Shown in pieces: positions 7,126-50,952 of a stretch of 64,000 bases of DNA. The DNA is from an uncultured archaeon (GTDB taxonomy: Archaea; Aenigmatarchaeota; Aenigmatarchaeia; GW2011-AR5). The DNA lies in NCBI GenBank assembly GCA_964373255.1, contig CAYJTG010000002.1:30481-94480 (forward strand), written 5' to 3'. The position numbers were made by a program, and so were the translations under genes. Each line of letters begins with the position of its first letter. The first letter of the stretch is position 1. The notes below the pieces were generated by a model. That model was not told the DNA's origin. It did not search any database and saw nothing but the letters and a program-made list of their open reading frames with translations.

Positions 7126-7268
7126 GGCATTGTCAACTTAAGGAGCACATAGTGGAATCGAAGATTCCACTTGTGCAGGTGAAGCTTTGCTTCACCATGC
7201 ATTAGCCTTTGCTAATGCTCCAGAAAGGGGTGTTATCGATAGATAACACCCGTTAAGTTTACAATGCC
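7126..7268. mobile_element. MITE-like nested-hairpin element (terminal stem GGCATTGTCAACTTAA / TTAAGTTTACAATGCC)
   Basis: A 16-bp terminal inverted repeat encloses four perfect 8-10 bp hairpins (gtggaatc/gattccac, ggtgaagc/gcttcacc, gcattagc/gctaatgc, ggtgttatc/gataacacc). The flanking 9-mers tcgtatttc and ttgtatttc match at 8/9 positions. Confidence 0.7.
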
Positions 7269-7361
7269 TTGTATTTCTCAATATGTAAGATTGTGCTATA
7301 AAATCCTACTTTATGAAGTCGTAGGTTTTCAGAAGTAATCTTAAAAGGTTATATGTGCGAT

Positions 7362-8183
7362 CTATTCGGAATCTTTTATCCTGTCAGCTATGTCTCTCTG
7401 AAAGCGGGCGTCTTTTTCAAGCTCGAGAGACTGCAAAATTCTTCTCTTTGGCTTGTGATGGTAGTGCCAGTACCCTACAATTGCGATTACAGCCAGCACA
7501 AGCACTACGTAAATAATCTCAGCGGCCACTGGTATTTGTGGTATTCCTGTCCCTGGCTGGTAAGCCGACGGCAATTGTCCTGTGCACGAGCTTGTGTCGA
7601 ACTTACATGCGCTGCACTTCAGTGTTCCGCTGACGAAGCCTTTTGTGTTGCACGCTTGTCCTGCAAGGTCTGATCCATCGCATTCCTCTGTTCCTTCACG
7701 AATATTGTTGCCGCACACAGCTCCAGTTTCAGCAGGCTGTGTGGTCGTCTGTCCTACACTAAGGCTTGATGATTTTGTGTTGAACCCGCCTGGATACGTC
7801 CAGACAGCAATAAGCTCATAAGTGCCGACAGACGAAGGCGCTGCCATTGTATAGCTCAGCGTTATCGCCGAGGAGAGAGGCTTGCTGAATTTCCAGTGCA
7901 GCCCGTTTCTTGTTGCACCCTGATAAGATATAAGCTGGCTATCGAACGCAACGTCAGACTTCGTGTATCCGGATACAGACCAGTCCGCTACTGTCCACGT
8001 ACTGGGAACAAAATCAGCTAGGTCAAACGCTGTAAGCGCGCCCTCCGGGTTGATCGAAAACGAGACGGTAAATGAAGAAGACGGGCTTGCAGAAGACGGC
8101 ATGTTCCTGTCGACCGCAACTGCAAAGGCCGTTGTGCTAAAAAGTAAAAATGCCGCGAAAATCAGAATTATTTTTTTCATCAT
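7362..8183 (-). CDS. Surface protein with the same C-terminal Cys-rich repeat + TM anchor as 928..2517
   Basis: The track ORF starts at GTG 8189 and the ATG is at 8183 (MMKKIILIFAAFLLF signal). The C-terminus reads CGNNIREGTEECDGSDLAGQACNTKGF..CSACKFDTSSC...AEIIYVVLVLAVIAIVGYWHYHHKPKRR. Confidence 0.8.
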   Translation of the reverse strand: MMKKIILIFAAFLLFSTTAFAVAVDRNMPSSASPSSSFTVSFSINPEGALTAFDLADFVPSTWTVADWSVSGYTKSDVAFDSQLISYQGATRNGLHWKFSKPLSSAITLSYTMAAPSSVGTYELIAVWTYPGGFNTKSSSLSVGQTTTQPAETGAVCGNNIREGTEECDGSDLAGQACNTKGFVSGTLKCSACKFDTSSCTGQLPSAYQPGTGIPQIPVAAEIIYVVLVLAVIAIVGYWHYHHKPKRRILQSLELEKDARFQRDIADRIKDSE

Positions 8184-8192
8184 AAACACCTA

Positions 8193-9353
8193 TTATGACT
8201 TATAGTATAAATCTATCAGGCTCACGACGTCAAAGAAATTCACGCCGCCCTTGTAATATTGGTCGATCTTGCCTATGACATCAAAAAACGACACCTTCTT
8301 TGAGCTCGTGATTGCGTACACGGAGAATGATGTCGTGACTGCTTCAAACGTATAGTTTGTGCCGTCAAAACTCAGTTTCTGCGTAGGCAGCGACACCCAC
8401 TGGTTATTGACCAATTTCTTCAGAACGGTTGCCTCTGGCACTACGCTGTTGCTTGTAAACCATGATTTCGGGACCTTGAACTGAATCTTCACATCAGAAA
8501 TTTTGGTGCTTGGAAAGGAAGACGTGATATCAAGATATTTGTAGACAGTGCCCTGTGCTGAAGATATAGCCACGCTTGCCTCTGCCGGTTTTGTTGTTTC
8601 TTTGATTGTGATTGTCGCTGCTGTAATTGTTTCTGTTGCATTCAGGTCTATCTCTGTGATACTGAGGCTTGTGACATTTGCTGCAGATATCGTAAATGTT
8701 GCAGTTGAGCCAGCGCTGACGGTCTGCGGGGCTGTTGTCTCTGTAACCGTTGGCGTGGTCACGGCACCGCCGCCACCGCCACCTCCGGTGCTGCTTGTGG
8801 ATGTAGTCTGGCAGCCGCTTGTACACGCCTGCCCAGATGAGCAGGCTGAATCATCAGAAGAACAAGATTCGCCTGTGTCGCAAAATGCATCACCGCAGAA
8901 TGTTGATGCGGCCCGGCAGATGCTATGGACGCAGAACCCACCAGAACACCCGGATGCGAACGTGCACGCAACTGTGTTCGCCGACCGGTTGGCAGAAAGA
9001 TTGAAGTTCTCGACGACAATCTGTCCTGATAAAATTGTCTGCGCGGTTGTGTTTGTGCCGTTCATTGCAACAAGGGCTGCGCCATTTATCTTGAACGTTA
9101 CATTATCGCCTGAATTTGCCTCAAAAGAGATTACATACCTGCCCTGCGGCGTAACGCCAGCCAGTATGCCTTCTCCTATTGTCACGCCAGACGCAGCTGT
9201 GGACGCATTGTTTAAAAATGCCTGTATTATTGTACCGTTAGCAGCTGTCGCACCGTCTAAGAATGCGTAGCCACGATAGAAAACAGGCGATGCTGCGTAA
9301 GAAATAGATGTGAACAAAGTAAAGATCATTGCAAATATTAAAAAATTTTTCAT
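8193..9353 (-). CDS. Secreted Cys-rich protein with PGF-pre-PGF-like module and C-terminal tandem 17-aa motif
   Basis: ATG start and signal MKNFLIFAMIFTLFTSISYA. It has a Cys cluster (CTFASGCSGGFCVHSICRAASTFCGDAFC...), a poly-Gly stretch and the module ..VYKYLDITSS..KIQFKVPKSWF..FSVYAITS. It ends VSFFDVIGKIDQYYKG GVNFFDVVSLIDLYYKS. Confidence 0.8.
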   Translation of the reverse strand: MKNFLIFAMIFTLFTSISYAASPVFYRGYAFLDGATAANGTIIQAFLNNASTAASGVTIGEGILAGVTPQGRYVISFEANSGDNVTFKINGAALVAMNGTNTTAQTILSGQIVVENFNLSANRSANTVACTFASGCSGGFCVHSICRAASTFCGDAFCDTGESCSSDDSACSSGQACTSGCQTTSTSSTGGGGGGGAVTTPTVTETTAPQTVSAGSTATFTISAANVTSLSITEIDLNATETITAATITIKETTKPAEASVAISSAQGTVYKYLDITSSFPSTKISDVKIQFKVPKSWFTSNSVVPEATVLKKLVNNQWVSLPTQKLSFDGTNYTFEAVTTSFSVYAITSSKKVSFFDVIGKIDQYYKGGVNFFDVVSLIDLYYKS

Positions 9354-9457
9354 TTTTCACGACCCCATTATACCTTGTAACAGCCTAAATCTGCTTGTTA
9401 ATTCTTGTTAATATTTGAATATGAAATTATAAAAATCGAAAAAAGAACGGCTATTTC

Positions 9458-12400
9458 TTATATCGTGAACCTTGTGTTGCTTGCTGTTATGTTAATGAAG
9501 TAAGGCTTGTCGTTCGTGTTGTTCACAAACTTCAGCGTGGATCCGCCCGGGTCTGTCCTGGTCGCAAGCACCCAACCCGTGCTTGAGCCGTTGACATTGT
9601 AATACATGTAATTCCAGTTCGAACTTAGGCTGGACAATATGGATGTGAAGTTGAAGCTGCCTGTTGTGCCGGCTGTCTTGCCCGCTGATTCCATTATTGT
9701 CTGCGTCGGGATGAAGAGCGTGCTCCAGCCCACAGCAAAGTACCCTGTGCTTGGCTGCGTGTAATTGAAATTACCCCTCGTATCGATTTCAAACCATACA
9801 ATGCCCGACGCCGTCATCGTATTGCCGAACGTGTCTGCGCATCTTACATAGTAAGCGTACACGCCATCGTTCTGGCCAGACAGCGTGTAGTTGTGTGTTG
9901 TGCCTGTTCCTGTGAATGTATTAGCCATGCCCGAATAAGTCTTGTCTGAGTTGTCAAACTTGCACGTTGCTGCTTCGCTTGTATTTACCAAGAGGCTAGG
10001 CGAACTTGTTGTAACTTTAGCGGCCGTTGTTGGGGCTGTTGCTGTTATTGTCGGCGCGGCATTGTCGGTTGTTATATTAGATGTATTCGAACCCAACGTT
10101 GCTACGGTTGGCGTAATTGCTACGCCAGACGAACCGCCTGTTATTGTCATATTTGCTGCAGCTGTTGTAAACGCCAATGTCTTGTCGCCACCTGCTCCTG
10201 ATGATACATTTATAACCAAAAGCAATACTTGTGTTGTACCATTTGTTACCGTGAACAATGGCGCTGCTGAGAAGTTATAGACACTATTGGAAGGCGCAGA
10301 TAAGTTCCATCTGATCAACGTCTCTGTAGCGTTGAGAATTCCATCGTCGTTTGTTGCGTTGAATAAGCCGACTGCAACTATATCCGCGTCCCCGGCTGTT
10401 CCTGTCCTTGTTACGTTAAAGTTGGTTATGTTCATTGTTTCGCCTACCGCTGATAATGAATAGCTTATTACTGTGACGTTAGGCGTTCCTGATATTGTGA
10501 ATTGCGATATCCTGTTCGTTCCTGTGACCGTGACATTACCATTTATTGTAGATGTTACAGATATGCCTGTGGATATTGTTTCGCTGATTGATTGACCTGT
10601 AGCCCCCCCAGTTGTAACTATGTCAGCAGATACATTTATTCCTGCGCCGAATGTTCTGCCCCCGAATGCATTGTTGCTCAGGTTGACGACAACAAAAACT
10701 ATTTGCGAACCGCCTGACGCAACCCTGAATGAAAGGCTGGAGAAATTATATCTTCCATTTGTCGAAACCGACCTGTTGCCTATGAATGTTTCTGTGCCGT
10801 TCAGTACGCCATCGTTTATTGTATCATTGTACAATGATATTGTAGTAATGTCGGAATCGCCGATATTAGTGCCGTTTCTTGTGATTATTATCTCGGAAAT
10901 GTTCATCTGCTCACTTGTCGCAGAGAAGTTGAGCGTGACGACAACAATGCCCCCTGTTCCTACTGTTGCATTGGCAGGTGCCCGCGATGTCCCTGTTATT
11001 GTAAGTGTTCCTGCTATTGTAGACGTATTCGAGCCTCCTGATGTGAGTGTCTGCGGCGTAACAGCTGCGCCGCTTGTGGCTGACGTTACGCTCAGGTTAG
11101 AACTTCCTAATGAAGCGCCGAACGTCCTGCCGCCTGTTGCGGTGCCGGATATGTTGAATACGACAATAACGTGCTGATAGCTGCCTGACGATATGTTCAG
11201 AAGGCTGGCGCCTGTAAAGTTATAGACGCCACTGGAAGGTATGGAAGTGTTCCACCTAAGCAGCGTTGAGCTTGCCAGGTCAGTTGCAACAGAGTTATTG
11301 TATATTCCGACAGCAACAACGTCTGAGTCAACAGATGACCCTATCCTTGTTATGTTTATGGCGGTCAAATTCATTTGTTCTTCAACGGCAGTAATGTTAT
11401 AGACAATAACAGTAACATTATTTGCGCCTATGTCTGTAAGTGCACCAAGCTTATTGATGCCTGTAATGTTAAGCGTGCTTATTGCAAGCGTGGATGAATT
11501 TGTACCGGAAACAACAGGCGTAATTGCTATATTTGATGTTCCTCCCACCATTGTCAGGTTTGCTGTTGCAATGTTTGCGCCGAATGTCCTGCCGCCTGTT
11601 GCGGTGCTTGTTAAATTAAACACAACTATGATGTGATGATATCCACCTGCTGATACACTCAAAATCGGCGCGCCTGAGAAGTTGTAAACCAGGTTTGTTG
11701 GCGCAGAGGTATTCCATGCTATCAATGTAGCTGCTGCTAGTCCCGTACCAGCAGAATTATTGTATATTCCGACTGCTGCGATATCGTCACTATTTGCTGT
11801 ACCTAAACGTGTAATATTCAACCTTGTTATATTTGCTGCTTCGCCTGTCGCTGTAATATTGTAAACGATCATTGAGACATTGGATGTTCCGGCAACCTTC
11901 ACAGTAGTCAATTGATTAATACCTGTTATAGTTGCTGTGGCGAATATTGTGCTCAAGGATGAGTTTGTGCTTGTCAATGTTGGCGTTATGGCCTGGCCTG
12001 TTGTGCTGCTGATTATGCTCAAGTTTGCAGCTGCGATGTTAGCACCGAACGTGCGGCCGCCTGTTGCTGATCCAGATATATTAAATACAACAAGTACGTG
12101 CTGGTTGCTGCCTGATGATACATTGAGTATGCTAGGCCCGCCTTCTGCAGTAATATTAAATACATAAACACCGTTGACTGGCGCAGACGTGTTCCACCTT
12201 ATCAATGTCGCAGCTGCTAATCCTGTTCCTACAGAATTGTTGAACAATCCGACAGCAACGATGTCGGTGTTCTGTACTGTTCCTAATCTTGTTACGTTAA
12301 GCCACGTGAGGTTCATCTGTTCGCCTGTGGCTGTGATGTTGTAGACTATGACTGTTACATTCACAGAGCTTACGTTTGTCGTTGCAGATACCTGGCTGAT

Positions 12401-15400
12401 GCCTGTTATTGACGACGTGCCGATTATTGTTGACGTAGATGATGCAACAGAAGCAAGTGTTGGTGTTGCCTCGATGTTCGATGTTCCGCCACTTATTGTA
12501 AGGTTCGCCGTTGCAATGTTCGCCCCGAACGTATTGCCCACGGTTGCGCCGCTCGACACGTTAACAGCAATTATCAAATGATGATAATTGCCTGCTGCCA
12601 CGCTTATAATCGGCGATCCTGAGAACCTTACATTTATGCCAGACCGCGTGCCGTTGCCTGAAATAAGCGTTGCACCTGATACTGTTGTGCCTGTTGAAGA
12701 ATTGTACAACGCAACAGAGATCACGTCCGTTGCACTACCAGTACCCAGCATTGTCACATTAAATTCGGTCAAATTCATTGCCTCGCCTGTGGCTGTTATG
12801 TTGTAGACGATGACATTATTGTTATTGGTGCTCACGTTTGTCGTGGTGGCAATTTGGGTGATTCCTGTAATTGCTGCTGTGCCGAAGATTGTTTGTGTTG
12901 AAGAGTTTGTTGTTGCGAATGTCGGACCAATGCTTTGACCGGATGTCGCGCCGACAACACTTATGTTGGCTGCTGCTGTATCTGCGCCAAACGTACGGCC
13001 GCCGGTTGCACCGCTGGTGATATTGAACACGACGAGCAGGTGCGTGTTGTTGGCTGCAAGTATGCGCACAAGCGGCGCTGCCGAGAAGTTGTACACTCCT
13101 GCTGTGGGCGCGGAAAGGTTCCATGCGATAAGCGTAGCTGTCGCCAGTGCTGTTGAGACTGTATTATTGAATATGCCTACTGCTCCTATGTCTGAATTGC
13201 TGAATGAACCAAGCTTTGTTATATTAAAGTTGGTGAGGTTCATCGCCTCGCCTGTTGCTGTGATATTATAAATAATGACAGTGACATTGCTGGTGCTCAG
13301 GTTCCTGTTCGCCGTGTTCTGGTTTATTCCTGTTACAGCAGAAGTGCCGACTATCGATGCCAGTGATGAATTGGAGCTCGAGAGCGTTGGAGTAATTACA
13401 GAGCCCGATGCACTGCCAAGCATGCTCAGGTTTGCTGTTGCTATGTTCGCGCCGACTGTGTTGCCGAACGTGACATCAGCTGCACCAGATATATTAAATA
13501 CAACAATAAGGTGCTGATAGCTTCCTGAAGATATATTCAATATACTCGGACCACCGTCGGCAGTTACGTTGAATATGTAAACGCCATTTGTAGGGCTGGT
13601 TGCGTTCCATCTTATCAACGTAGAGCTTGCAAGACCAGTGCCAACTGAGTTGTTAAACAACCCGACTGCTGTAATATTAGTGTTTGCTGTGAGGAACGCG
13701 CCTGTACCAAGACGCGTTATATTTATCCACGTCAAATTCATCTGCTCTGCGCCTGCTGTTATGTTGTAAATTATTACCGTGACATTAGTCGCGCTGACAT
13801 TTACCGTAGAACTAAGCACGTTTATTCCTGTAATTGTCGAGTTGCCAAATATATTCGAATTCGTTGTCGACATGCCTGATGTTATTGTCTCTGCTATCGA
13901 CTGTCCGGAGACGGAACCGGTTGTTGCTACGTCGGCGGAAACATTTATGCCTGCGCCAAATGTGCGGCCGCCGGTTGCGCCTGAAGAAATATTAAATACA
14001 ACCAAGAGTATCTGCGAACTACCGTTTCCGATAACCAAACTAAGTCCTGAGAAATTGTACTTGCCATTTGTCGTGACAGAGCGGTTGCGTATGAATGTTT
14101 CTGTTGCGTTGAATACGCCATCGTTAAGTGTCTCATTGTATAAAGATACTGCAGATATGTCGGCGTCCGCTATGCTGGTGCCGTTCCTTTCGATAAGTAT
14201 TTCAGATATATTCATCTGCTCGCCGGCGCTTGTGAAATTTATTGTCACAACAGTGACGTTCCTTGTGCCCACAGCTGTAGTCGCGCCAACCCTGCTTGTT
14301 CCTGTAAGTGTAAGCGTACCGAATGTTGTCACGTTCGGTACTGATGAAAATATCGTATAGTTGCCGCCCGCAGAGCCGTTGACAGTTACTTCGAATGGTA
14401 TGACACCTGCTGTTGATGGCGCAAGCCAGTTCGCAATTATGACGCTTGCATTTGAACCAGAAGCCACTACGGAAGCACTGGAGTTCTTTGTACATTTCAC
14501 AATCTTTGTAGCAGCGGTTACGCTGCCGTCCCACGTGCCCGAACCTATGGTAGGACACGTAACGTTTGCCACTTCCGTGTCGGCGTAGCCAGTTGCCGTA
14601 TAGTTTATTCTTATCTCGTTTATGCTATCTCCACCAGAAGGATTTACAACCGTGAAATTGAAAGTCTTTCTCGTACTTATTTGCTGCGTTGTATCGTTGA
14701 CGCCTGCTGTTGCCGAGAGTGCAAGTATGTTTGAATTTGTTGCTGGGTTGAGAGGAAACGCCCCCAAAGTTGTAATTGCCACGCCTGTCGCGCCGCTGCT
14801 CACTGTAATATTCGCTGCTGCTGCGACATACGCGTCGACCTTGTTAGAAGCCGCCGCACTCGCATTTATAACAAATGTAACTATAAGCGTTCTTGTTGCA
14901 CCACTTGTTACATTAAATATGCCATCGGCTGAACCGGAACCGAAGCGTGCAATACTTCCGGTCAATGTCGCTGTTGCAATCAGCGAATCAGCCGGCGTGA
15001 ACAGACCGTCGTTTGTTGAGTCATTATACAGCCTTGCTGCGGTCACGTCGTTGTTGTTTGTGTTATTCATAGTAATGTTAATCTCCCTTATTTTCATGGC
15101 CTCGCCTGTTGCCACAAACGTAAGGTTGATTATTGCCGCCTCCTGGCTCTGGTCAACATTACTGGGCGTCATGTCTGCTGCGGTAACCGAAAGGTTGCCG
15201 AATATTGTTGACGTTGACGAATTCGAGTTTGATAATGCAGGTGTTACAGCTGTGGCTGACGTGCCGCCAGCCATCGTCAGGTTCGCTGTGGCTATGTCTG
15301 CGCCAAATGTATTTCCTCCAGCGGCGGACCCGGAAACATTGAACACGACTATCAGGTGCTGGTTGCTGCCTGATGCAACAGTTACCAGAGGCGACTCGGC

Positions 15401-23854: not shown

Positions 23855-24066
23855 AGCCCCAGGGGAGCATCGAACTCCCGACCTCCTGTTTTCTTGTTTC
23901 TTACTTGATTTTCTTTCTAAAAGAAAATCATACGAGACAGGTGCTTTCGGCTTTTTCTACCAATCTCCCCGATCCTTTCTAAATATTTGTGAAATCTATA
24001 GTTTCTTTGGGGTGAAACCTAGACCTTTCTTTACAAAGAAAGGGATCGGTGCTGAGCTACTGAGGC
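23855..24066 (-). tRNA. tRNA-Thr(CGU) with 2-3 introns (212 nt gene)
   Basis: Acceptor GCCTCAG/CTGGGGC (one G-U pair) and T arm GGGAG-TTCGATG-CTCCC. The anticodon arm is CCTGT-CTCGTA[40-nt intron]A-ACAGG. An 86-nt intron sits in the D loop after GCTCAGC. A possible 11-nt insert splits the D-stem 3' strand (GA|AAAAGCCGAAA|GC). The lengths add up: 75+86+11+40=212. Confidence 0.8.
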
Positions 24067-25536: not shown

Positions 25537-25627
25537 AGTATCTCCGAAAGTGAGGTATACGCCTCTTGGCGTATACCTCGGTAGAGGATTACTGCCAACA
25601 GGCAGTAATCCAACTTTCGGAGATACT
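25537..25627. repeat. 91-nt three-way nested-hairpin element
   Basis: The outer stem is AGTATCTCCGAAAGT/ACTTTCGGAGATACT. It encloses GAGGTATACGCC-TCTT-GGCGTATACCTC and GGATTACTGCC-AACA-GGCAGTAATCC, all perfect. It sits 30 nt upstream of tRNA-Gly(CCC). Confidence 0.7.
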
Positions 25628-25657
25628 GTTATAGCTCTGTAGAAAACCTATGCAAGA

Positions 25658-25818
25658 GCATCTGTGATCTAGTGCACCTTTCCAGAAAGCTGCACCAAAG
25701 CGGTGAAAGGTGTGGATATTGGTATGATACAAGCTTCCCACAAGCTTTCCAGAAAGCTTGAGCAAAGCGGAAGGCTTGGAGTCAGCTTGATATGCGGGTT
25801 CGATTCCCGCCAGATGCA
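25658..25818 (+). tRNA. tRNA-Gly(CCC) with two introns (D loop ~45 nt; anticodon loop 43 nt)
   Basis: Acceptor GCATCTG/CAGATGC and T arm GCGGG-TTCGATT-CCCGC. The anticodon arm is CAAGC-TTCCCA[43 nt]A-GCTTG. The D arm is ATCT..GGTA TGAT. The two introns share TTTCCAGAAAGCT..AAAGCGG..AAGG. Confidence 0.75.
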
Positions 25819-25895: not shown

Positions 25896-28217
25896 ATGCA
25901 AATCGCTGATCTGCAACTGCACAGCAAGTACAGCCGCGCCACGTCTGGGAAGATGGTTCTCGACGAGCTTGCGAAGTACGCGAAGATCAAGGGCGTCGAT
26001 ATATTAGGCACAGGGGACTTCACACACCCAATTTGGCTGCAAGAGCTGAAGGGCAAATTAGCTGAAAAGAATGCAGGCGTTTACGAATACGACGACGTGA
26101 TGTTTGTTCTTACCGGTGAAATATCCCTGATTTATACGCAGGACGGCAGGCAGAGGCGCGTGCACCATGTAATATTAGCACCTAATTTCTCTGTGGTCGA
26201 CCAGATCAACGAGTGGCTGGACAAAAAAGGCCGCAGGGACTATGACGGCCGGCCTATCTTTGGATTCTCATCAATAGAATTTGTCGAAGCGATGATGTCC
26301 ATATCGAAAGATATAGAAATAATCCCCGCACATTGCTGGACTCCGTGGTACGGAATATTTGGGTCGATGTCAGGTTTCGATTCTCTGGAGGAATGCTTCC
26401 GCGAAAAGGCAAAATACATACACTGCATCGAGACAGGGATGTCTTGCTACGATACCGAGACAGAAGTGCTGACAAATAATGGATGGAAAAAAATCTCGAG
26501 TGTCGGACATTCCGATGAAATTTGTACTTTAGACATTAATACAAATAGAATTGAACTCCAGAAGCCAATTAAATTGTTTAAATATAGTTACAAGGGCAAG
26601 ATGTATAGGTTAAAGACCAAAAGAATTGATCTTTTGGTAACTCCTAACCATAAACTTCTATGTAGCCCTTGTGATTTTAGAAAAAACCCTTCTTTTTCTC
26701 TTAAAGAAGCAGAATTTTTATTTAACAAATCAAAGCGATTTAAGAAAGATGGTATTTGGATTGGTGACAATCCAGAATATTTTGTTATTCCGGCTGTCAA
26801 AATAAAGCATGGAAGCAGATTTTATTCTGGATTTCGAAATAAAGGTGAAAAAAAGTGTCCGATCAAGCCTTGGTTAAGATTCTTCGGTTTTTGGTTGGCA
26901 GAAGGCTGGGCAACAGAAAGCAAAAATGGTGACTATGGGATTTATCTTGCGAATTCGAATCCGGAGATAATTTCTGAGATGAAAAAAATTCTTGAAAGCT
27001 TCGACTACACGGTATATCAATATAAAAATAGAAGCATGGACACAATTAGAGTAAGAGATTATCAATTATTTTCTTATCTTAAACAATTTGGAAAAGCCTC
27101 CGAAAAATTTATTCCTTCAGACATAAAATCATTATCAAAAGAGTTCTTAGAAATCTTATTTGAATTTTACATAAAGGGTGATGGACATAGGTACGGTAGA
27201 AATGGGAAAGGTCTTTCGGCTACCACAATCTCAAAACGTCTTCGTGACGATCTGCAGGAAATCGCGCTAAAAATTGGTATTTCAGCATATTATAAATTGC
27301 ATAACAAGAAAGGTACACCAATTACTTCTCTTCCAAAAGCCAAACTAAAAGGCTATAAACAATCCGAAGATTCGTGGGTAATATATTTCATCAGAAATAA
27401 CATTCATACTGTTTTGCCTTCCACTATCAAGAAATATAATTACATCGAATCTTGGGTCGACTACGACGGTTTTGTATATTGCGTTGAAGTCCCAAACCAT
27501 GTAATTTACATTAGAAGAAATGGTATTCCTGTTTGGTGCGGAAACTCGAATCCTGCGATGAACTGGCGCATTTCTGCTTTGGACAACATCACTCTGACAA
27601 GCAACAGCGACGCGCACTCGCCGTACCCGTGGCGGCTTGGCCGGGAGGCCAATGTATTTGATTTCAAAGAAGTGAATTTTGAAAATATCATAAACGCGTT
27701 TCGTAACAGGAAGGATTTTGCTTACACGATTGAAACAAGCCCGAACTATGGAAAATATCATTATGACGGACACCGGGCGTGCAATTTCTCATGCTCGCCA
27801 GACGAGACAAAGAAGCTCAGTGACGTATGCCCGAAGTGCGGCAAAAAATTAGTTATAGGCGTGCTCAACAGAGTGGAACAACTTGCAGACCGTGATGAAG
27901 GGTTCGTACCAAAGGACGCGATCCCGTTCAGGACTCTGATACCTCTGAGCGAAGTCATCGCTGCCTTTCACGACACTGATGTGTTCACAAAAAAGGTGTG
28001 GGAAATTTACAACAGGCTGATCGACCGTTTTGGCGATGAATTCAATATCCTTCTTAATACGGAAAAAAACGAACTTGAAAAGACGATCGACGAAAAACTG
28101 GCGGCGCTCATAATAAAGAACCGCGAGAACAAGCTGCACGTCGAGCCTGGTTACGATGGTGTATACGGAAAATTAGTTGTCAAAGAGGAAACGGGATTGA
28201 GAAGATTTATAAAATGA
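25896..28217 (+). CDS. PHP-domain endonuclease Q-like protein (EndoQ family) interrupted by an intein
   Basis: The N-extein reads MQIADLQLHSKYSRATS...GTGDFTHP...HHVILAP...PAHCWTPW...ETGMS. The C-extein reads SNPAMNW...LTSNSDAHSPYPWRLGRE...GKYHYDGHRAC...CPKCGKK...PGYDGVYG. This gives PHP metal motifs, a Zn finger and a C-terminal domain, as in archaeal EndoQ. Confidence 0.75.
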   Translation: MQIADLQLHSKYSRATSGKMVLDELAKYAKIKGVDILGTGDFTHPIWLQELKGKLAEKNAGVYEYDDVMFVLTGEISLIYTQDGRQRRVHHVILAPNFSVVDQINEWLDKKGRRDYDGRPIFGFSSIEFVEAMMSISKDIEIIPAHCWTPWYGIFGSMSGFDSLEECFREKAKYIHCIETGMSCYDTETEVLTNNGWKKISSVGHSDEICTLDINTNRIELQKPIKLFKYSYKGKMYRLKTKRIDLLVTPNHKLLCSPCDFRKNPSFSLKEAEFLFNKSKRFKKDGIWIGDNPEYFVIPAVKIKHGSRFYSGFRNKGEKKCPIKPWLRFFGFWLAEGWATESKNGDYGIYLANSNPEIISEMKKILESFDYTVYQYKNRSMDTIRVRDYQLFSYLKQFGKASEKFIPSDIKSLSKEFLEILFEFYIKGDGHRYGRNGKGLSATTISKRLRDDLQEIALKIGISAYYKLHNKKGTPITSLPKAKLKGYKQSEDSWVIYFIRNNIHTVLPSTIKKYNYIESWVDYDGFVYCVEVPNHVIYIRRNGIPVWCGNSNPAMNWRISALDNITLTSNSDAHSPYPWRLGREANVFDFKEVNFENIINAFRNRKDFAYTIETSPNYGKYHYDGHRACNFSCSPDETKKLSDVCPKCGKKLVIGVLNRVEQLADRDEGFVPKDAIPFRTLIPLSEVIAAFHDTDVFTKKVWEIYNRLIDRFGDEFNILLNTEKNELEKTIDEKLAALIIKNRENKLHVEPGYDGVYGKLVVKEETGLRRFIK
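26445..27545 (+). mobile_element. Intein (367 aa) with LAGLIDADG homing-endonuclease domain
   Basis: Block A is CYDTETEVLTNNGW and block B is LLVTPNHKLL. The LAGLIDADG motifs are LRFFGFWLAEGWA and LEILFEFYIKGDGH. The C-terminus is VYCVEVPNHVIYI..GIPVWCGN followed by the +1 Ser. It is in frame (26445 and 27546 share the host frame) and visibly more AT-rich than the exteins. Confidence 0.85.
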
Positions 28218-28225: not shown

Positions 28226-28357
28226 GATTGAATTCCATGTTCGTATGATGATCGTCAGCGTAGCGATATACGTCTTTTGACGTATACCGCAGCTAGCACC
28301 ATCGCCAGAAAGGCGATGGTGCTCACGCTGACGATCATACTTTAATGGAATTCAATC
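28226..28357. mobile_element. MITE-like nested-hairpin element with 8-bp TSD ATGCCTTT
   Basis: The termini are GATTGAATTCCAT.../...ATGGAATTCAATC. The second stem is GTATGATGATCGTCAGCGT/ACGCTGACGATCATAC. The internal hairpins are GATATACGTC-TTTT-GACGTATAC and AGCACCATCGCC-AGAA-AGGCGATGGTGCT, joined by AGCT. Exact ATGCCTTT copies lie at 28218-28225 and 28358-28365. Confidence 0.8.
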
Positions 28358-31067: not shown

Positions 31068-31200
31068 GGCTCTGTTGAAATGCTCAATAAAAGCATCGAC
31101 GTGAGAGCTATTGTCTTTTGACAATAGCTCTAGCTGACCCTTACGTCGATAAGACGTAAGGGTCTACGTCGATGCTTTTTCATAGGTTTTCAACAGAGCC
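31068..31200. mobile_element. MITE-like nested-hairpin element with 8-bp TSD TATTCACC
   Basis: The termini are GGCTCTGTTGAAA.../...TTTCAACAGAGCC. The second stem is GCATCGACGT/ACGTCGATGC. The hairpins are GAGAGCTATTGTC-TTTT-GACAATAGCTCT and GACCCTTACGTC-GATAA-GACGTAAGGGTC, joined by AGCT. TATTCACC occurs at 31060-31067 and 31201-31208, and the right copy contains the stop codon of the next gene. Confidence 0.85.
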
Positions 31201-31203: not shown

Positions 31204-32277
31204 TCACCTGATTACTGTAATCTCTGTTTTGCCGCGCACTTCATACCTGTACTTCAGCGCTATTTCAAGGCCGTAGTTCTCGACGACGGTGACGCCTGTC
31301 GGAAGCTCAAGACGGCAGGCTACGCGCGGGAATTCTTTGCCCTGCAACTTCAACGACCAACCGGACTTGATGATTTCGTCGCAGCGGGCAATATTCGCAT
31401 TGTTGTATCCGACGGGGCTCACGCGCAAGTTAGTGTCATCGATATCGCCGATAAAGCCGTTGCCAATATTCTTTATAGTAATATACATCAAATACTCGCG
31501 GTCGGGTCTGACAACAATCGGCATTTCATCGCTGAACTCTACAATAATCTCCACGTTCTTGTCACGATACACGAACGAAGAGGGCTTTTTTGCGAGCTGG
31601 CCGCGCTCTAAGCGCGTTATGTATTCGCTCTCGGTCATCATCTCTATCAGCTGGACGACTGGCAGCTCTGTGGTGTAACTGACCCTTGAACTCACGACAG
31701 ATTTTTGCGTGTCTTCAGCAAGGTCTGTTTTCTGCGGCGCCATCAACAGGCACGAAAGTGTCTTGAAGTCATCGGGCAGCATGAATTCTATGAACTTGCC
31801 GCACGCGCCTGGTGTGATGTATTCACCGGATTGCGTGTAGTCAGCAGTGCCAAGAATGTTGAATATTCCAGCGTCAAAGATGTCCGCCTCGACGTCTGTG
31901 ACGCGGCGCGGGTTCTGGTTGTCGATATCCACGTTAACACGAACCTCGCCTGACGCAAAGACCTTTGACGGGTCTGGCGTTAGCGTAACAAAAAGCCCGC
32001 CACCTACTGTCTGCGGCTGTATGCAGCCGCTTATGAAAATTATAACAACAAATAATAAAGCAAGAAGAAGCGATTTGGAATTTTCTTTAACTAGCTCTGT
32101 AAAAATGCTCGATAAAGAGCATCGACGTAGACCTATATGTCTCTTGACGTATAGGTCAGCTAGAGGCATTGTCTGAACCGTTAGACGCACTTCGTGCGTC
32201 AGTTTGTTACAATGCCTCTCACGTCGATGCTCTTGCATAGGTTTTCTACAGAGCACTTTAACTATTTTAAATATCAT
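31204..32277 (-). CDS. Lipobox surface protein, paralog 3, carrying an in-frame MITE insertion in the signal-peptide n-region
   Basis: ATG at 32277. Removing 171 nt (element plus one TSD) restores MIFKIVKENSKSLLLALLFVVIIFISGC. The C-terminus is ..LKYRYEVRGKTEITVIR. Internal ATGs at 32238 and 32169 are alternative starts. Confidence 0.7.
   Translation of the reverse strand: MIFKIVKVLCRKPMQEHRRERHCNKLTHEVRLTVQTMPLADLYVKRHIGLRRCSLSSIFTELVKENSKSLLLALLFVVIIFISGCIQPQTVGGGLFVTLTPDPSKVFASGEVRVNVDIDNQNPRRVTDVEADIFDAGIFNILGTADYTQSGEYITPGACGKFIEFMLPDDFKTLSCLLMAPQKTDLAEDTQKSVVSSRVSYTTELPVVQLIEMMTESEYITRLERGQLAKKPSSFVYRDKNVEIIVEFSDEMPIVVRPDREYLMYITIKNIGNGFIGDIDDTNLRVSPVGYNNANIARCDEIIKSGWSLKLQGKEFPRVACRLELPTGVTVVENYGLEIALKYRYEVRGKTEITVIR
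32094..32255. mobile_element. MITE-like nested-hairpin element (same family as 31068) with 9-bp TSD CTTTAACTA, inside a CDS
   Basis: The termini are GCTCTGTAAAAA.../...TTTTCTACAGAGC. The second stem is GAGCATCGACGT/ACGTCGATGCTC. The hairpins are AGACCTATATGTC-TCTT-GACGTATAGGTC and AGAGGCATTGT...ACAATGCCTCT. CTTTAACTA occurs at 32085-32093 and 32256-32264. Confidence 0.85.
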
Positions 32278-32555
32278 ACATCTCGAATTCTATTTGTCCT
32301 GCGTGGTTTAAATTTATCTCAGAAATTGGCTGAATCAGATAGAACACATTATTAAGTCTTTATAATGAAACCAGAAAAGAATCTGGACATGTTTTTCTGG
32401 TTTCACTTACATGGCGAAACTTTGTTTCGCCTGTACAGAAATCGATAGTTTCTTGAAGCAGAGCTCTTTCAAAGCCTGTGTTCGTGCTCGAAGCCAACAA
32501 TTCATCCGCTTGCTGAAGCAATAGGCATTCTTGTTGATGATAGTAAATTCTTCAA

Positions 32556-46792: not shown

Positions 46793-47082
46793 TGCGAGGG
46801 GGCGGATTCGAACCGCCGAACGGACTAACCGACAAGATAGCTCAAACGGTCATATAATAATCGTTTGCTAATAAATCGATTTCTTGAGTTTCACAGTCAT
46901 CTAAGCTTCTTTAGAAAAGAAGCTTAATCAAGAAACTTCTTTTCTTTCAACGCTTATCTTAACTCAATGACACTTGCGCCTTTGACCAGATTTCCATACC
47001 TTCTCTTCATAATACAGCTTTACCATAATTTCTTTTGGTATAGCTTTTCTTTTGAAAGAAAAGGTATCTTGGCTACCCTCGC
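46793..47082 (-). tRNA. Class II tRNA, probable tRNA-Leu(CAA), with three introns (290-nt gene)
   Basis: The 5' part is GCGAGGG TA GCC AAG[77 nt]TCTGGTCAAA GGC G CAAG[83 nt]. Next come ACTCAAGA[44 nt]TCTTG and T CGGTTAGTCCG TTC. The 3' part is GGCGG-TTCGAAT-CCGCC CCCTCGC A. The lengths add up (86+204=290). The isotype depends on an 8-nt micro-exon. Confidence 0.7.
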
Positions 47083-47663: not shown

Positions 47664-47778
47664 CATTATCAACTTAACGGCTGTTGTCAAAGCATATAGA
47701 CGCACTTCGTGAGTCAGTTTGTTTCAACAGCCTTTTCTGGGTGATTAGCTGTTGCTAATCACCCTTAAGTTGATAGTG
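47664..47778. mobile_element. MITE-like nested-hairpin element (CAACTTAA family, inverted relative to 49480)
   Basis: The terminal stem is CATTATCAACTTAA/TTAAGTTGATAGTG. The hairpins are GGCTGTTG..CAACAGCC and GGGTGATTAGC-TGTT-GCTAATCACCC. The first contains TAGACGCACTTCGTGAGTCAGTTTGTT, which is shared with 32180. No clear TSD was found. Confidence 0.65.
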
Positions 47779-47785: not shown

Positions 47786-47932
47786 TGCGGTAGCCGGGAT
47801 TCGAACCCGAATCGCAACCTTGGCAAGGTTGTATCCTACCATTATCCATTTTCTTGGTTCTGTTGGTTCTTTTGGTTCTGTTGGTTCTTTTGATTAAACT
47901 TTTCTTCCAAGAAAAGTTTAGACTACTACCGC
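47786..47932 (-). tRNA. tRNA-Gly(GCC) with a ~75-nt D-loop intron
   Basis: Acceptor GCGGTAG/CTACCGC. The D arm is GTCT AA[intron]TGGTA GGAT. The anticodon arm is CAACC-TTGCCAA-GGTTG and the T arm TCGGG-TTCGAAT-CCCGG. The intron contains a tandem 18-nt repeat. Confidence 0.8.
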
Positions 47933-48029
47933 TGTTTGAAAACAGTGGAATGCAAGATTTAAATATAGAAATAAATTGTAAATCTAAAATCTAAAGAAAT
48001 CAAAACCAAAAATAAAATAAAAAACAAAA

Positions 48030-49285: not shown

Positions 49286-49337
49286 AACAGATATATGGAA
49301 AACAGGCAAATAAATAGAATAAGGTGCTTGTTGTATT

Positions 49338-49505
49338 ATGAAAAAATATTCAAAGCAGTGTCCGGTTTGTAAATCCGTGAATATTACGTGGTACGCAGGT
49401 GGTGTAACTGGGAATTACGAATGCAAGGGGTGCGGGTACGTTGGAATTCTTGTTCTGGAAGTTGTAGAAGACGACAAAAGGCAACGTCAACTTAAGGGTG
49501 GTTAG
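49338..49505 (+). CDS. Zinc-ribbon mini-protein (55 aa)
   Basis: It falls below the track cutoff. Sequence MKKYSKQCPVCKSVNITWYAGGVTGNYECKGCGYVG... The last 26 nt and the stop lie inside the element at 49480. Confidence 0.4.
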   Translation: MKKYSKQCPVCKSVNITWYAGGVTGNYECKGCGYVGILVLEVVEDDKRQRQLKGG

Positions 49506-49568
49506 CTGTTGCTAACCACCCAGAAAAGGCTGTTGCCGATAGGCAACAGCCGTTAAGTTGACGATGCC
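49480..49568. mobile_element. MITE-like nested-hairpin element (CAACTTAA family)
   Basis: The terminal stem is GGCAACGTCAACTTAA/TTAAGTTGACGATGCC. The hairpins are GGGTGGTTAGC-TGTT-GCTAACCACCC and GGCTGTTGCC-GATA-GGCAACAGCC, joined by AGAAAA. The flanks match only weakly. Confidence 0.7.
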
Positions 49569-49619
49569 TTGAAAAAAGAAAACTTAAGAAGAGAAGAAAA
49601 ATTAGATGATTATTAAGAA

Positions 49620-49779: not shown

Positions 49780-49847
49780 CTTTCTTTTTAAAATACTAAT
49801 TCTAATTTACTGTAAACCCACTAAATAATCAGGACATAATTCCACAT

Positions 49848-49972
49848 GCCGGCTTGGCAGAACTAGGTAAATGCACGTGCCTTGAGTAAATTTTTTAGAA
49901 AAAAGTTTAATCAAAAAACAAGGTCAGCACGAGTGGCTCCGCCACACGCAGGTTCAAATCCTGCAGCCGGCG
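49848..49972 (+). tRNA. tRNA-Ser(UGA) with a 39-nt canonical (37/38) intron
   Basis: Acceptor GCCGGCT/AGCCGGC. The anticodon arm is CGTGC-CTTGAG[39 nt]A-GCACG. The variable arm is AGTGGCTCCGCCACAC and the T arm GCAGG-TTCAAAT-CCTGC. The lengths add up (86+39=125). Confidence 0.85.
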
Positions 49973-50037
49973 CTTATAATCCCAAGAATCCCAAGAAGGG
50001 GCAAGGAACAAAGCTTTTAAAAATAGAAATTTGTATT

Positions 50038-50565
50038 ATGAGTATGGAAAATGATTTTTACCGCCAGCTGGGAACAGGCGTTGCCAGCCTAACATTCGGT
50101 GTAGCGCTTTCGATATTTATTTATGCGGCTGCGTCTGGAATAGCAAGCACGACGCAAGCGTGGCTGCTTTTCGGGGCTTCGTTTTTGATTATGCTCAGGT
50201 TCTGGTGGCGATACAATGAACTCTTTGTGCAGTTTTTGCCATCAAAAACATTCTGGCATTTCCTGTTTGATTTCTTGATTTCATTTTTTGGCATACTGGC
50301 CGTGCTTTCTGTAAACAATATACAGACGTGGGCCGTGATCGGGATGCTGGCAATGATATCCTCTGCTGTCAGATGCGGGCTATCGTGGGATGCCAAAAAA
50401 GACGCAAAGCAAAGGCTTCAAAGGACGCTCTACGGGGCTGTCGGAATGCTTATTATATTTGGCATTGTCTATAGCCTTGCGTCTATCATTGAACACGTTC
50501 TACTGGCAGAAGCCATCTTCGTGATAGTCTTAATTTTTGTTATTTACTCCTCTAAAAAGAACTAA
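50038..50565 (+). CDS. Polytopic membrane protein
   Basis: The track ORF (49882) overlaps tRNA-Ser(UGA). The ATG at 50038 gives MSMENDFYRQLG.. followed by about five TM helices. Confidence 0.6.
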   Translation: MSMENDFYRQLGTGVASLTFGVALSIFIYAAASGIASTTQAWLLFGASFLIMLRFWWRYNELFVQFLPSKTFWHFLFDFLISFFGILAVLSVNNIQTWAVIGMLAMISSAVRCGLSWDAKKDAKQRLQRTLYGAVGMLIIFGIVYSLASIIEHVLLAEAIFVIVLIFVIYSSKKN

Positions 50566-50876
50566 ATCGTTTTTGTATTTTGTTTTATGAGAAATCTGCA
50601 TATACTGTAGAGTTCTGTCTCCAGCGCTGGCTTGTCTATTTTCCCGTTTATGAGCTGCTCGCACAACTGCCTTATTTTACCGGCTAAATTCTGATCAGAC
50701 ATCATTTTATTCGCGCCGCGGATCTGCCGCAGGTACTGTGAAACAGCGGGCTGCGTTACGCCAAGCATGTTAGAGATCTCTGTCTGATTCAGTTTGTAAG
50801 AATTAGCTAATTCTCGGGCCATCTTAGCCCTCACAGAAGGCAGCAATTCTGCGATTTTCTCGATTTCAAGCTTCAT
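50562..50876 (-). CDS. XRE-type helix-turn-helix regulator
   Basis: ATG at 50876 (MKLEIEKI..). LNQTEISNMLGVTQPAVSQYLRQIRG is a classic HTH. The longer TTG-start version would run into a repeat remnant. Confidence 0.7.
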   Translation of the reverse strand: MKLEIEKIAELLPSVRAKMARELANSYKLNQTEISNMLGVTQPAVSQYLRQIRGANKMMSDQNLAGKIRQLCEQLINGKIDKPALETELYSICRFLIKQNTKTI

Positions 50877-50916
50877 AGCTATCGTAAATGTTATTGGTGG
50901 CAGAACTTTTTTATAA

Positions 50917-50952
50917 GCAATTGATGCTATTTCACAGGTTTTCAACAGAGCC
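50917..50952. repeat. Remnant (one arm) of the GGCTCTGTTGAAA MITE family
   Basis: ..gcaattgatgctatttcacaggttttcaacagagcc compares with acgtcgatgctttttcataggttttcaacagagcc at 31166-31200. No partner arm is present. Confidence 0.6.

Follow-up and report, generated by a model that had tools for sequence, protein, structure and literature searches.

The BIME/REP sequences of enterobacteria, the pneumococcal BOX elements and the Correia elements of Neisseria are small, high-copy elements put together from hairpin modules in varying arrangements. Terminal repeats and duplications are further features of the Correia elements; the mobility of REPs depends on Y1 (RAYT) enzymes, and no duplications arise. 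The elements described here resemble these mosaic repeats in combining hairpin modules variably within small, high-copy units, yet we know of no archaeal representative of the three groups, nor of any with sequence in common with ours. Rickettsia palindromic elements (RPE) are mobile, and some of their insertions in protein-coding genes keep the reading frame and are still translated; to our knowledge no transposase has been assigned to these bacterial elements, and they lack clear terminal repeats and duplications. A further relevant structure is the T-shaped ITR of adeno-associated virus, a viral replication origin served by the Rep nickase, in which an outer stem closes two small perfect palindromes that occur in flip and flop orientations.

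Archaeal MITEs have been described in Halobacterium. According to extracts of one report (PMC7002104), elements such as MITEHsal2 are tied to insertion sequences (IS) by end homology and show insertion polymorphism between strains, and one MITE has inserted in the N-terminal signal-sequence region of bop. Insertion sequences of the ISH1 subgroup measure 900-1150 bp and make 8-bp direct repeats (PMC6352166, Table).

We analyzed a window of 64,000 nucleotides (the whole stretch of DNA under study) from an Aenigmarchaeota-like DPANN genome, in which seven hairpin elements of 89-163 nt, without a transposase gene, lie dispersed (E1-E7, Table 1). These hairpin elements are very likely non-autonomous DNA transposons (MITEs) that belong to several families. 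The kind of element is genuine but already familiar, and its nested hairpins are unusually perfect. A close likeness is to IS5-derived MITEs of the ISH1 type, with which they share terminal inverted repeats starting with GGC, 8-bp AT-rich duplications, the lack of an ORF, a size of ~120-160 nt, multiple copies and, in one family (that of E4 and E5), both ends matching those of a 1.0-kb IS with an IS5-family DDE transposase. In contrast, the near-perfect nested palindrome cassette seen here is missing in methanogen MITEs with the same ends. The Halobacterium MITEs belong to other IS families and hosts, are ~400 nt long, and no nested perfect-hairpin cassette is mentioned in the extracts cited above (PMC7002104), although the insertion in bop resembles that of E5 in a lipoprotein gene.

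Ends and target-site duplications

All eight coordinates given in the earlier note, for seven elements and a one-armed remnant, match the sequence described there, and the shared termini and modules that it pointed out were reproduced with blastn-short and a repeat finder. The outer arms of the terminal inverted repeats of E1-E7 are 13-35 nt long and 83-100% complementary. Four end types can be distinguished: GGCTCTGT(T/A)GAAA (E4, E5 and two solo arms), A (GGCAWYGTCAACTTAA), E3 (GATTGAATTCCAT) and E2 (AGTATCTCCGAAAGT), the last three having hairpin modules in common with the GGCTCTGT group.

Table 1. Hairpin elements and associated features of the window (z, RNA-fold z-score; depth, read depth)
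Feature	Coordinates	Strand	Description
E1	7126..7268	.	end type A (GGCATTGTCAACTTAA); z -12.1; depth up to ~10x unique
E2	25537..25627	.	end type AGTATCTCCGAAAGT; z -13.2; depth 1250-2740 vs 15
Solo End-1 arm, IS5-type MITE	25634..25662	+	GCTCTGTAGAAAACCTATGCAAGAGCATC
E3	28226..28357	.	end type GATTGAATTCCATG; z -14.0; 12x depth
E4	31068..31200	-	IS5-type MITE; z -15.0; ~37x depth
Lipoprotein-like gene	31204..32277	-	SGC lipobox; carries E5
E5	32093..32255	-	IS5-type MITE, in frame in lipoprotein gene; ~41x depth
Nested module in E5 hairpin loop	32173..32208	.	36 nt
Separate repeat family copy	32358..32440	.	GAAACCAGAAAAGAATCTGGACATG..TTTCTGGTTTCAC + second hairpin; ~11x depth
E6	47664..47778	.	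end type A, degenerate ends; z -9.7; 12x depth
E7	49480..49568	.	end type A, minimal form; z -12.4; 11-28x depth
Solo End-1 arm, IS5-type MITE, truncated	50917..50952	-	stops just after ..AGCATC

Exact direct repeats had been reported around three elements, and all three are there: ATGCCTTT around E3 (8 bp; 28218-25 and 28358-65), TATTCACC around E4 (8 bp; 31060-67 and 31201-08) and CTTTAACTA around E5 (9 bp; 32085-93 and 32256-64). With the alternative limits used in Table 1, E5 can equally be read as a 163-nt element with the 8-bp duplication CTTTAACT; its duplication, CTTTAACT(A), is thus of 8 or 9 bp. The flanks of E1 (tcgtatttc / ttgtatttc) form the imperfect, 8/9 pair that was claimed. 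No clear target-site duplication was seen at E6, E7 or E2, the boundary of which may reach 25632.

The elements occupy a variety of settings. E3 is located between two convergent stop codons, and its type of terminus is also found at the end of a further contig (L145). The stop codon of the gene upstream of E4 lies within the duplication TATTCACC, and End-1 of this element is at the right on the + strand. E6 and E7 have opposite orientations. A tRNA-like sequence was seen by eye beside E6; ARAGORN and Rfam do not detect it. Downstream of the remnant at 50917-50952 lie a TTATAAAAAA box and a gene for an HTH protein. A second solo arm, additional to the one listed in the earlier note, adjoins E2 and directly borders a tRNA gene with several introns, at its 5' end. 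The small isolated hairpins that the same note had called perfect turned out to be imperfect, and one of them (32366-32432) is a member of a different repeat family, likewise multi-copy (32358-32440), that is not part of the elements with terminal inverted repeats.

E5 is an in-frame insertion of 57 codons at codon 7, in the signal peptide of the lipoprotein gene. The 57-aa insert is absent from eight homologues of the lipoprotein, and the N-terminus without it reads MIFKIVKENSKSLLLALLFVVIIFISGC. E5 and another copy (in P0015) are apparently in frame and translated, which resembles the in-frame insertion of RPE. Here, however, in-frame copies are exceptional and most copies are intergenic.

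Copy number and empty sites in relatives

Further copies of the elements exist: in four metagenome runs, read depth over them was ~10-140 times that of unique sequence (~15), reaching 80-140x for E2, the most abundant type, and 11-28x for E6/E7 (other elements in Table 1). There are also chimeric copies, with an E5-like core under an E3-type terminus.

Two contigs of a relative ~90% identical (X6 and X7) skip E2 with its adjoining solo arm, E3, E4 and E5. At two syntenic loci (L129 and L131) there is no insertion where E3 and E5 would lie, and L131 also lacks one at the position of E4. The absence of E2, E3, E4 and E5 from these orthologous sites marks the four as recent insertions. We see almost no chance that the elements are old regulatory structures that have become fixed, as the earlier note had considered, or palindromes arisen by chance. 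For E2-E5 the empty sites already refute this; exact duplications, multi-copy depth and an excess of perfect hairpins (16 of at least 9 bp in the window, against 1.05 expected in first-order Markov random sequences) also speak against it. The one sequence that behaves as it would predict is the 32358-32440 repeat, which has a copy at the orthologous spot in a distant relative (L131) and a further copy elsewhere (L124). The MITE interpretation that had been proposed is instead supported by the multi-copy depth, the duplications, the empty orthologous loci and, for the GGCTCTGT group, by a cognate autonomous element.

An IS5-family partner of the GGCTCTGT group

Scanning genomes for the ends of the GGCTCTGT group returned seven loci, against an estimated ~1 expected by chance; one of them, in a related MAG, is a 133-nt copy with the same architecture and the duplication ATTATTCT. 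The same scan of metagenomes returned 120 loci. In methanogen and other metagenomes, the same asymmetric ends and perfect 8-bp duplications bound both MITEs of ~120-130 nt and elements of ~1.0 kb, and the GGCTCTGT MITEs have retained both ends, slightly unlike each other, of this ~1.0-kb insertion sequence. Perfect 8/8 duplications were found in 27 of the 63 distinct same-end elements from other genomes and metagenomes, with 82% A+T in the duplicated sequences, so that the target-site duplications in the window are not coincidental.

Three of the long elements (L085, L095 and L128) are 1003-1009 bp in length, share these ends and are flanked by perfect duplications of 8 bp, and a fourth (L045) has the same ends with no clear duplication. 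Intact proteins of 294-300 aa are encoded in L085, L128 and L045, while L095 has only a truncated ORF. The L128 protein matches Pfam DDE_Tnp_1 (1.4e-25) and NCBIfam transpos_IS5_2 (NF033579; 220 bits for a cut-off of 140), and its homologues, in Methanoregula and others, are annotated as IS5 family transposases. The search for a cognate transposase recommended in the earlier note thus produced an autonomous element with a DDE transposase, and the GGCTCTGT(T/A)GAAA group (E4, E5 and the two solo ends) is a MITE of such an insertion sequence of the IS5 family. The size of the partner and the length of its duplications match the ISH1 subgroup, a putative assignment made on these two features only; no named ISfinder element matched. 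When the L128 insertion sequence was compared with the source runs, only 39 nt of conserved motif matched, the contig being at the genome's depth, and no transposase could be linked to the genome of the window.

The GGCTCTGT MITEs would then be moved in trans by the IS5-family DDE transposase, through the usual DDE mechanism and with AT-rich sequences as targets. Types A, E3 and E2 seem to behave likewise, with multiple copies, insertion polymorphism and, for A and E3, direct repeats of 8-11 bp. An autonomous element for these three end types was not found; most likely each is a MITE served by some other DDE transposase yet to be seen.

An IS200/IS605 (TnpA/TnpB) partner had been suggested. 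On such a reading the elements would be of the IS200/IS605 or REP/PATE hairpin-end type, moved as ssDNA by a Y1 (HUH) transposase that recognizes internal hairpins. The predominance of perfect hairpins would fit it, as would E2, with no clear duplication, and one same-end element in Methanosphaera carries a TnpB gene. Nonetheless, E3, E4, E5 and dozens of relatives have exact duplications of 8 bp as well as terminal inverted repeats, and IS200/IS605 elements do not generate such duplications. The enzyme encoded by the full-length partner is a DDE transposase and not a Y1 enzyme, the two hairpins of one element are unlike in sequence, and the Rfam match to IS605-orfB scores 21 bits for a threshold of 94. 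A Pfam scan of 40 window ORFs detected no transposase domain, Y1 included, in agreement with the earlier observation that the window has no transposase. The suggestion was not borne out, and we regard it as very improbable. Membership of the IS200/IS605 (PATE/REP) class was rejected for all elements except E2, as terminal repeats and 8-bp duplications of variable sequence contradict it.

Structure and probable upkeep of the hairpin interiors

Six elements gave RNA-fold z-scores between -9.7 and -15.0, a stability that none of 200 shuffled versions reached, and 10 of the 16 perfect hairpins of the window fall in the listed elements. The cassette layout, which is the unusual trait of these elements, consists of an inner stem closing two perfect hairpins of 10-13 bp, which differ in sequence within one element and have homologues under different ends; E3 holds the version that is common to E4 and E5. 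In E2, a 15-bp outer stem is combined with two hairpins, both perfect, of 12 and 11 bp. E7 is bounded by 16-bp ends; inside, an AGAAAA linker joins an 11-bp hairpin with a TGTT loop to one of 10 bp with a GATA loop. In E1, the outer stem measures 16 bp and the first hairpin is composite, with three hairpins nested in it; an AGAAA linker then leads to a 10-bp hairpin with a GATA loop.

The stem-preserving substitutions described earlier are real, with compensatory changes at 20 of 53 pairs among five copies, but the stems, which are strand-symmetric and almost free of G-T pairs, agree better with pairing in DNA than with selection on one RNA strand. Among the predicted stem pairs of 12 elements, 595 are Watson-Crick and 18 G-T on the + strand, and 592 and 10 on the - strand, compared to a G-U share of 14% in random windows; fold energies are nearly equal on the two strands. 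Together with the compensatory changes, an inverted interior and a nested module, these Watson-Crick-pure, strand-symmetric stems favor palindromes maintained in DNA over a strand-specific RNA, and the pair statistics on the 12 copies suggest that this is probably what the stems are. RNA selection on both strands, or a very recent common origin, could be alternative sources of perfect stems.

A related proposal is that the cassette is selected as RNA (a terminator, an insulator or a stable small RNA), that insertions are harmless or useful to the host, and that the transposon ends are a mere vehicle. The extreme stability of the folds and their compensatory changes are in its favor, as are the position of E3 between stop codons and of E4 directly after one, the presence of different MITE types in the same two intergenic spacers of two relatives, and the recurrence of terminator-like hairpin sequences in these genomes. 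The near absence of G-U pairs and equal folding on both strands are difficult to reconcile with it, and so are the occurrence of elements in either orientation to genes, the capacity of the interior to flip, and the lack of a cassette in same-end methanogen MITEs. Among curated RNA families (Rfam 15), only two tRNAs in the window reached the gathering score; the MITEs were unmatched, and matches near E2 were below threshold and at chance level. We consider this proposal unlikely.

The E5 interior aligns with the reverse complement of that of E4 in 45 of 63 columns (3 gaps), versus 42 of 70 with many gaps in direct orientation, while the ends of the two elements align better in the same orientation. 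Taking this one pair of copies, with E4 as comparison, the E5 interior appears inverted relative to its ends. This recalls the flip and flop of the adeno-associated virus ITR, as a structural analogy only: nothing in our elements points to replication primed by hairpins, and recombination of the inverted arms with each other may be enough to account for the inversion. Besides, the 36-nt module in the E5 loop (32173-32208) recurs as 38 nt in a hairpin loop of E6 (47687-47724), and a copy without it exists (joint 32152->32211).

Such modules could alternatively be tiny mobile or templated insertions into hairpin loops, by which interiors grow through nesting and not through recombination between MITEs. 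This reading, to which we give a minor but real chance, would explain why the module sits in loops of elements with different ends (IS5-type in E5, type A in E6), and why the first hairpin of E1 and of the L129 element carries three extra hairpins where E7 has a simple TGTT loop. Just one module is known from two contexts, though, it showed neither duplication nor defined ends, and isolated copies outside MITEs were not found in the window.

Our preferred model is that the interior would be a palindromic DNA cassette, swapped through recombination between one MITE family and another, or brought along when one element inserts within another. Its perfect self-complementarity would be kept by intrastrand DNA pairing, as a fold-back or cruciform with templated correction, or else because only perfect fold-backs are able to propagate, and now and then the cassette would be inverted between its inverted arms.

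Possible roles of the cassette and the occurrence of shared ends

The lack of a cassette in same-end methanogen MITEs indicates that the transposase does not need it. It is conceivable, if somewhat doubtful, that the cassette is a unit in its own right that has spread over at least three unrelated MITE end types in Aenigmarchaeota-like genomes for some function. It might fold the element back and unite, for the transposase, ends that are only ~100 bp apart; it might permit a hairpin or single-strand copying step, which would account for the flipped interiors as well as for the perfect stems; or, as a terminator working in both directions, it could help a very compact genome to tolerate insertions. 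Finally, the same ends in insertion sequences of methanogens and in MITEs of DPANN archaea may mark a traffic of DNA between episymbionts and methanogen hosts.

Hairpin-rich elements and their insertion sites

All elements listed in the earlier note lie at the coordinates given there, with flanking direct repeats exactly as quoted, and blastn-short together with a repeat finder confirmed their shared ends and internal modules and revealed a second solo arm. These elements are MITEs, a well-known kind of element, inserted with duplication of the target. Single-strand folding of six of them gave minimum free energies between -54 and -85 kcal/mol (z-scores of -9.7 to -15.0, with 0/200 dinucleotide shuffles equally stable). 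The window has 16 perfect hairpins whose stems reach 9 bp or more, against a mean of 1.05 expected from first-order Markov random sequences, and 10 of the 16 fall within the listed elements. Rfam contained no family for any of the elements.

Position, end type and read depth of elements and neighbouring features (window coordinates unless a contig from another genome or metagenome, L###, is named; depth in four metagenome runs, unique depth ~15)
Feature	Position (strand)	End type	Depth
E1	7126-7268	A	up to ~150
E2	25537-25627	E2	1250-2740
E3	28226-28357	E3	~180
E4	31068-31200	IS5-type	~580
E5	32093-32255	IS5-type	~700
E6	47664-47778	A	155-390 (E6, E7)
E7	49480-49568	A	155-390 (E6, E7)
Second solo arm	25634-25662	IS5-type, End-1	
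Other solo arm	50917-50952	IS5-type, End-1	
MITE in spacer of L004	5014-5146	IS5-type	
MITE at E4 site of L129	7950-8093	A	
Element with TnpB gene, L007	1995-3498	IS5-type	
Element with 212-aa ORF, L127	933-2017	IS5-type	
Lipoprotein-like gene	31204-32277 (-)		
Apparent tRNA gene	25657-25817 (+)		
D-loop-region insert of that gene	25672-25719		
Gene of 773-aa protein	25896-28217 (+)		
2687-aa ORF	9458-17521 (-)		
Separate repeat family	32358-32440; 58856-58949; L131 890-990; L124 2459-2497		
..CTTCTTT-loop-AAAGAAG.. hairpins	23906-23930; 46902-46926; 47895-47920; 54536-54558; L129 13801, 15813; L004 6851, 6925; L019 2387		

That the elements exist in further copies, as the earlier note implied, was borne out by four metagenome runs containing the window almost completely: depth over the elements is far above the unique value, and metagenome contigs end at them. 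Among RNA runs, none was found that covers the region. Their density of ~0.14 per kb in the window would amount to roughly 1-3% of a 1-Mb genome. The recurrent perfect hairpins of the form ..CTTCTTT-loop-AAAGAAG.. are identical when read on either strand and look like bidirectional terminators.

The insertions are polymorphic between relatives. In a ~90% identical relative (runs X6 and X7) the flanks are joined without E3, E4 and E5, with 39 nt of diverged spacer at the E4 site, and E2 is skipped together with the adjoining solo arm. We also compared syntenic contigs of more distant relatives, L129 (same MAG as L004) and L131: the E3 and E5 sites are empty in both, with a 28-nt convergent spacer at the former in L129, and the E4 site is empty in L131. 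The alternative that the elements are ancient fixed structures, or products of chance, is refuted by these empty orthologous sites and by the hairpin and fold statistics, and the insertion reading of the earlier note stands. In L129 the E4 site is occupied by another MITE, a type-A element with a 10-11-nt direct repeat CGGGTCGCAG(A) on its flanks, while L004, syntenic with window positions 7.3-17.5 kb, carries an IS5-type MITE in the spacer that holds the type-A E1 in the window. Since different MITE types occupy the same two orthologous spacers, these spacers were hit independently, and the presence of unlike MITEs there in both genomes suggests either hot spots of insertion or some advantage to carrying an element at these places.

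An IS5-family partner for one MITE family

Judged by its ends, the GGCTCTGT family (E4, E5 and the two solo arms) consists of MITEs that belong to an insertion sequence of the IS5 family. Scanning one genome per species with GCTCTGTWGAAAACCTRTRMAA gave 7 loci against ~1 by chance (our estimate). L004, an archaeal MAG from 0.1-µm-filtered groundwater, has a 133-nt element of E4 architecture with duplication ATTATTCT, and loci of Methanosarcinales and Methanococcoides have elements of 123-131 nt, flanked by the duplications AAATAAAT and CAAATATG. In metagenomes, GGCTCTGTWGAAAACCTRT matched at least 120 loci; among the matches listed there were 63 distinct elements, each hit paired with the opposite end, and 27 of these 63 had perfect 8/8 duplications, which were 82% A+T. 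The IS5-type end had 0 matches in a scan of viral contigs.

Four elements of 1003-1009 bp carry the same ends (L085, L095, L128 and L045), with perfect 8-bp duplications at all except L045. Intact proteins of 294-300 aa are encoded by L085, L128 and L045, and L095 has only a truncated ORF. Domain searches with the L128 protein gave DDE_Tnp_1 in Pfam (1.4e-25) and transpos_IS5_2 in NCBIfam (220 bits; cut-off 140), and its many homologues named IS5 family transposase come from Methanoregula, Methanoregulaceae and Mesotoga. The size and duplication length of these elements agree with the values that PMC6352166 lists for the ISH1 subgroup. Their two ends diverge past about position 13 (End-1 ...GAAAACCTAT, End-2 ...GAAATCCTCA), and the MITEs, E4 and E5 included, retain both, identical to those of the IS5-family element. 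The earlier note had named an IS200/IS605-type transposase as one example of a possible partner; this, like a REP-type mechanism, fails the defining tests for all elements except possibly E2, and the 1.0-kb partner encodes an IS5-family transposase. An IS6 or IS1595 origin, at first considered in view of the GGCnnTG ends and 8-bp duplications, was dropped as the full-length elements encode IS5-family transposases.

Within the window, Pfam found no transposase domain of any kind among 40 ORFs, as the earlier note had claimed. Compared with the source runs X2-X4, the L128 IS matches over only 39 nt (262-300), a conserved C-terminal motif of IS5 transposases. The X2 contig bearing this match has a depth of 15.3, that of the window's genome, and the match may stem from an autonomous element of that organism that has diverged in sequence. 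The IS5-type MITEs would be mobilised in trans by an IS5-family transposase in this host.

Ends of this type also bound other contents. L007, from a Methanosphaera stadtmanae MAG and one of the 7 loci of the genome scan, has nothing between its IS5-type ends (8-bp duplication TAAATAAA) but a TnpB gene with a frameshift (NCBIfam guided_TnpB, 274 bits) and the region downstream of that gene, which looks like TnpB riding in a DDE-type non-autonomous element. In L127, ends of this type with a perfect duplication, AAAATTAC, surround no transposase but an ORF of 212 aa that has a hydrophobic segment at its N-terminus, apparently a cargo-carrying derivative.

Other end types

Type A (ends GGCAWYGTCAACTTAA; E1, E6, E7 and the L129 element) is multi-copy, with flanking repeats of 8/9 and 10-11 nt. 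Type E3 (ends GATTGAATTCCAT) has a perfect 8-bp duplication, ~12x depth and empty sites, and type E2 (ends AGTATCTCCGAAAGT), the most abundant, is missing in X6 and X7 and has no definable duplication. Blastn of the three types against ~130 loci from other genomes and metagenomes returned only one type-A copy (L129/L130) and one E3-type terminus, which ends contig L145 of a relative with 75% IleRS identity. No autonomous partner of these types was found among those loci or in scanned viral contigs, where E2 and E3 ends had 0 matches each; 13 viral matches to a short type-A pattern were rejected as chance, their interiors being unrelated. From their behaviour, we infer that all three types are MITEs as well, and that they would be moved by DDE partners other than the IS5-family one.

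A separate repeat family (table) has a hairpin GTGAAACCAGAAA..TTTCTGGTTTCAC, then ACATATAG, then a second, variable hairpin, at ~11x depth. Its copy at 32366 had two matching copies among the ~130 loci, and the family is nearly identical in the orthologous spacer of a relative in which the protein encoded alongside shares only 52% identity.

Architecture of the hairpin cassette

One plan is common to E3, E4, E5 and elements of L004, L058, L019 and L124: between the outer ends, the two strands of an inner stem (10-14 bp) enclose a pair of hairpins, the first of 12-13 bp with a loop of 4 nt and the second of 12 bp, joined by a short AGCT or AACT linker. Type A has 16-bp ends around two hairpins that an AGAAA(A) linker connects; the loop of the second is GATA. 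Both solo arms stop right after ..AGCATC, the foot of the inner stem; a promoter role of solo End-1 arms, considered over five oriented cases, is conceivable. The hairpin TATACGYC-TYTT-GRCGTATA is common to E2, E3 and E5, with near variants in L004 and L058. E5 and E6 share a 36-38-nt module, in each case placed within a hairpin loop, and the community also contains a copy without it, copies lacking the two apical hairpins (31092 joined to 31176) and chimeras of an E3-type terminus and an E5-like core, a mosaic reminiscent of BIME and BOX elements. Among loci placed taxonomically, the cassette occurs only in Aenigmarchaeota-like contigs. Methanogen MITEs of ~122 nt with the same ends have ordinary interiors (-0.2 to -0.3 versus -0.5 to -0.6 kcal/mol per nt), and hence the transposase does not need the cassette.

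In five IS5-type copies, 20 of 53 pairs changed on both sides with pairing kept. The cassette could have an RNA function, as terminator, insulator or small RNA, and this might coexist with a DNA-level reading. However, the predicted stems of 12 elements contain 595 Watson-Crick and 18 G-T pairs on one strand and 592 and 10 on the other, against a G-U share of 14% in random windows, and folding energy is almost equal on both strands; this symmetry and the near absence of G-U pairs oppose selection on one RNA strand. The E5 interior matches the reverse complement of the E4 interior in 45 of 63 columns (3 gap columns) and the direct E4 interior less well (42/70, many gaps), whereas the asymmetric ends of both align better in the same orientation. 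In this one pair, therefore, the core was inverted between copies. The AAV terminal repeat, with its T-shaped core in two orientations, is alike in shape only.

Tentatively, and with somewhat less than even confidence, we read the cassette as a DNA palindrome. Either intrastrand pairing, with correction from the paired template, or a filter that lets only some forms propagate would keep it perfect; recombination between its own arms would invert it, and recombination or nesting would pass it among MITE families. It is unlikely that the cassette has a function or copying mechanism of its own.

Effects on genes and genomic setting

E5 interrupts codon 7 of the lipoprotein-like gene and, together with its duplication, lengthens it by 171 nt. 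Of the six reading frames of E5, a single one is stop-free, and it is the one used: an in-frame insertion lengthening a signal peptide, reminiscent of Rickettsia RPEs. Without the insert the N-terminus reads MIFKIVKENSKSLLLALLFVVIIFISGC, and a similar short signal peptide is found in 8/8 homologues. With a start at an ATG inside E5, the N-region would be long and positively charged, and the gene may therefore still work. Removal of E5 from the mRNA as a bulge-helix-bulge intron was considered, but no such motif was seen by eye at the E5 borders. In P0015, a TPM-domain protein of another genome, a 74% identical N-terminal peptide derives from an E5-like copy and may partly be a gene-calling artefact. 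E3 parts two convergent stop codons otherwise 7-8 nt apart, and the E4 duplication includes the stop codon of the upstream gene.

The isoleucyl-tRNA synthetase of the window is closest to proteins named Candidatus Aenigmarchaeota (58-71% identity). Many window ORFs have no Pfam match; others encode housekeeping functions typical of archaea, or surface proteins of very large size. Without a Pfam match, the 2687-aa ORF, made of tandem units of roughly 462-480 nt, is presumably a giant surface protein. The 773-aa protein carries an intein (LAGLIDADG and intein-splicing domains); its L129 homologue and several IleRS homologues of the lineage have inteins too. Rfam found two tRNAs in the window, both with introns, and ARAGORN in bacterial mode found none because of these introns. 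Both programs missed what appears to be a further tRNA gene, interrupted by at least two introns (5' GCATCTG, T-arm GCGGGTTCGATTCCCGC, 3' CAGATGC), whose 48-nt D-loop-region insert is missing in X6 and X7. Its intron sequences are over-represented 4-10x in read depth and share a CCAGAAAG motif with MITE linkers; the tRNA introns here behave as if they were mobile repeats.

Relation to known elements and significance

High MITE densities in some DPANN genomes already appear in bulk censuses (PMC11602168). Assigning archaeal MITEs to IS families through end homology is established, and one MITE so assigned lies in a signal-sequence region (PMC7002104). A limited literature search found no account of this family, of its architecture or of a perfect-hairpin cassette common to several MITE end types. 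For annotation, these repeats disrupt short-read assemblies and yield spurious N-terminal ORF extensions. With one MITE family tied to an IS5-family transposase shared with methanogens, the elements offer a concrete, testable case of transposon dynamics in a DPANN archaeon. The same ends, with or without a perfect palindromic core, are a clean natural system in which to ask whether DNA fold-backs help transposition or just accompany it.
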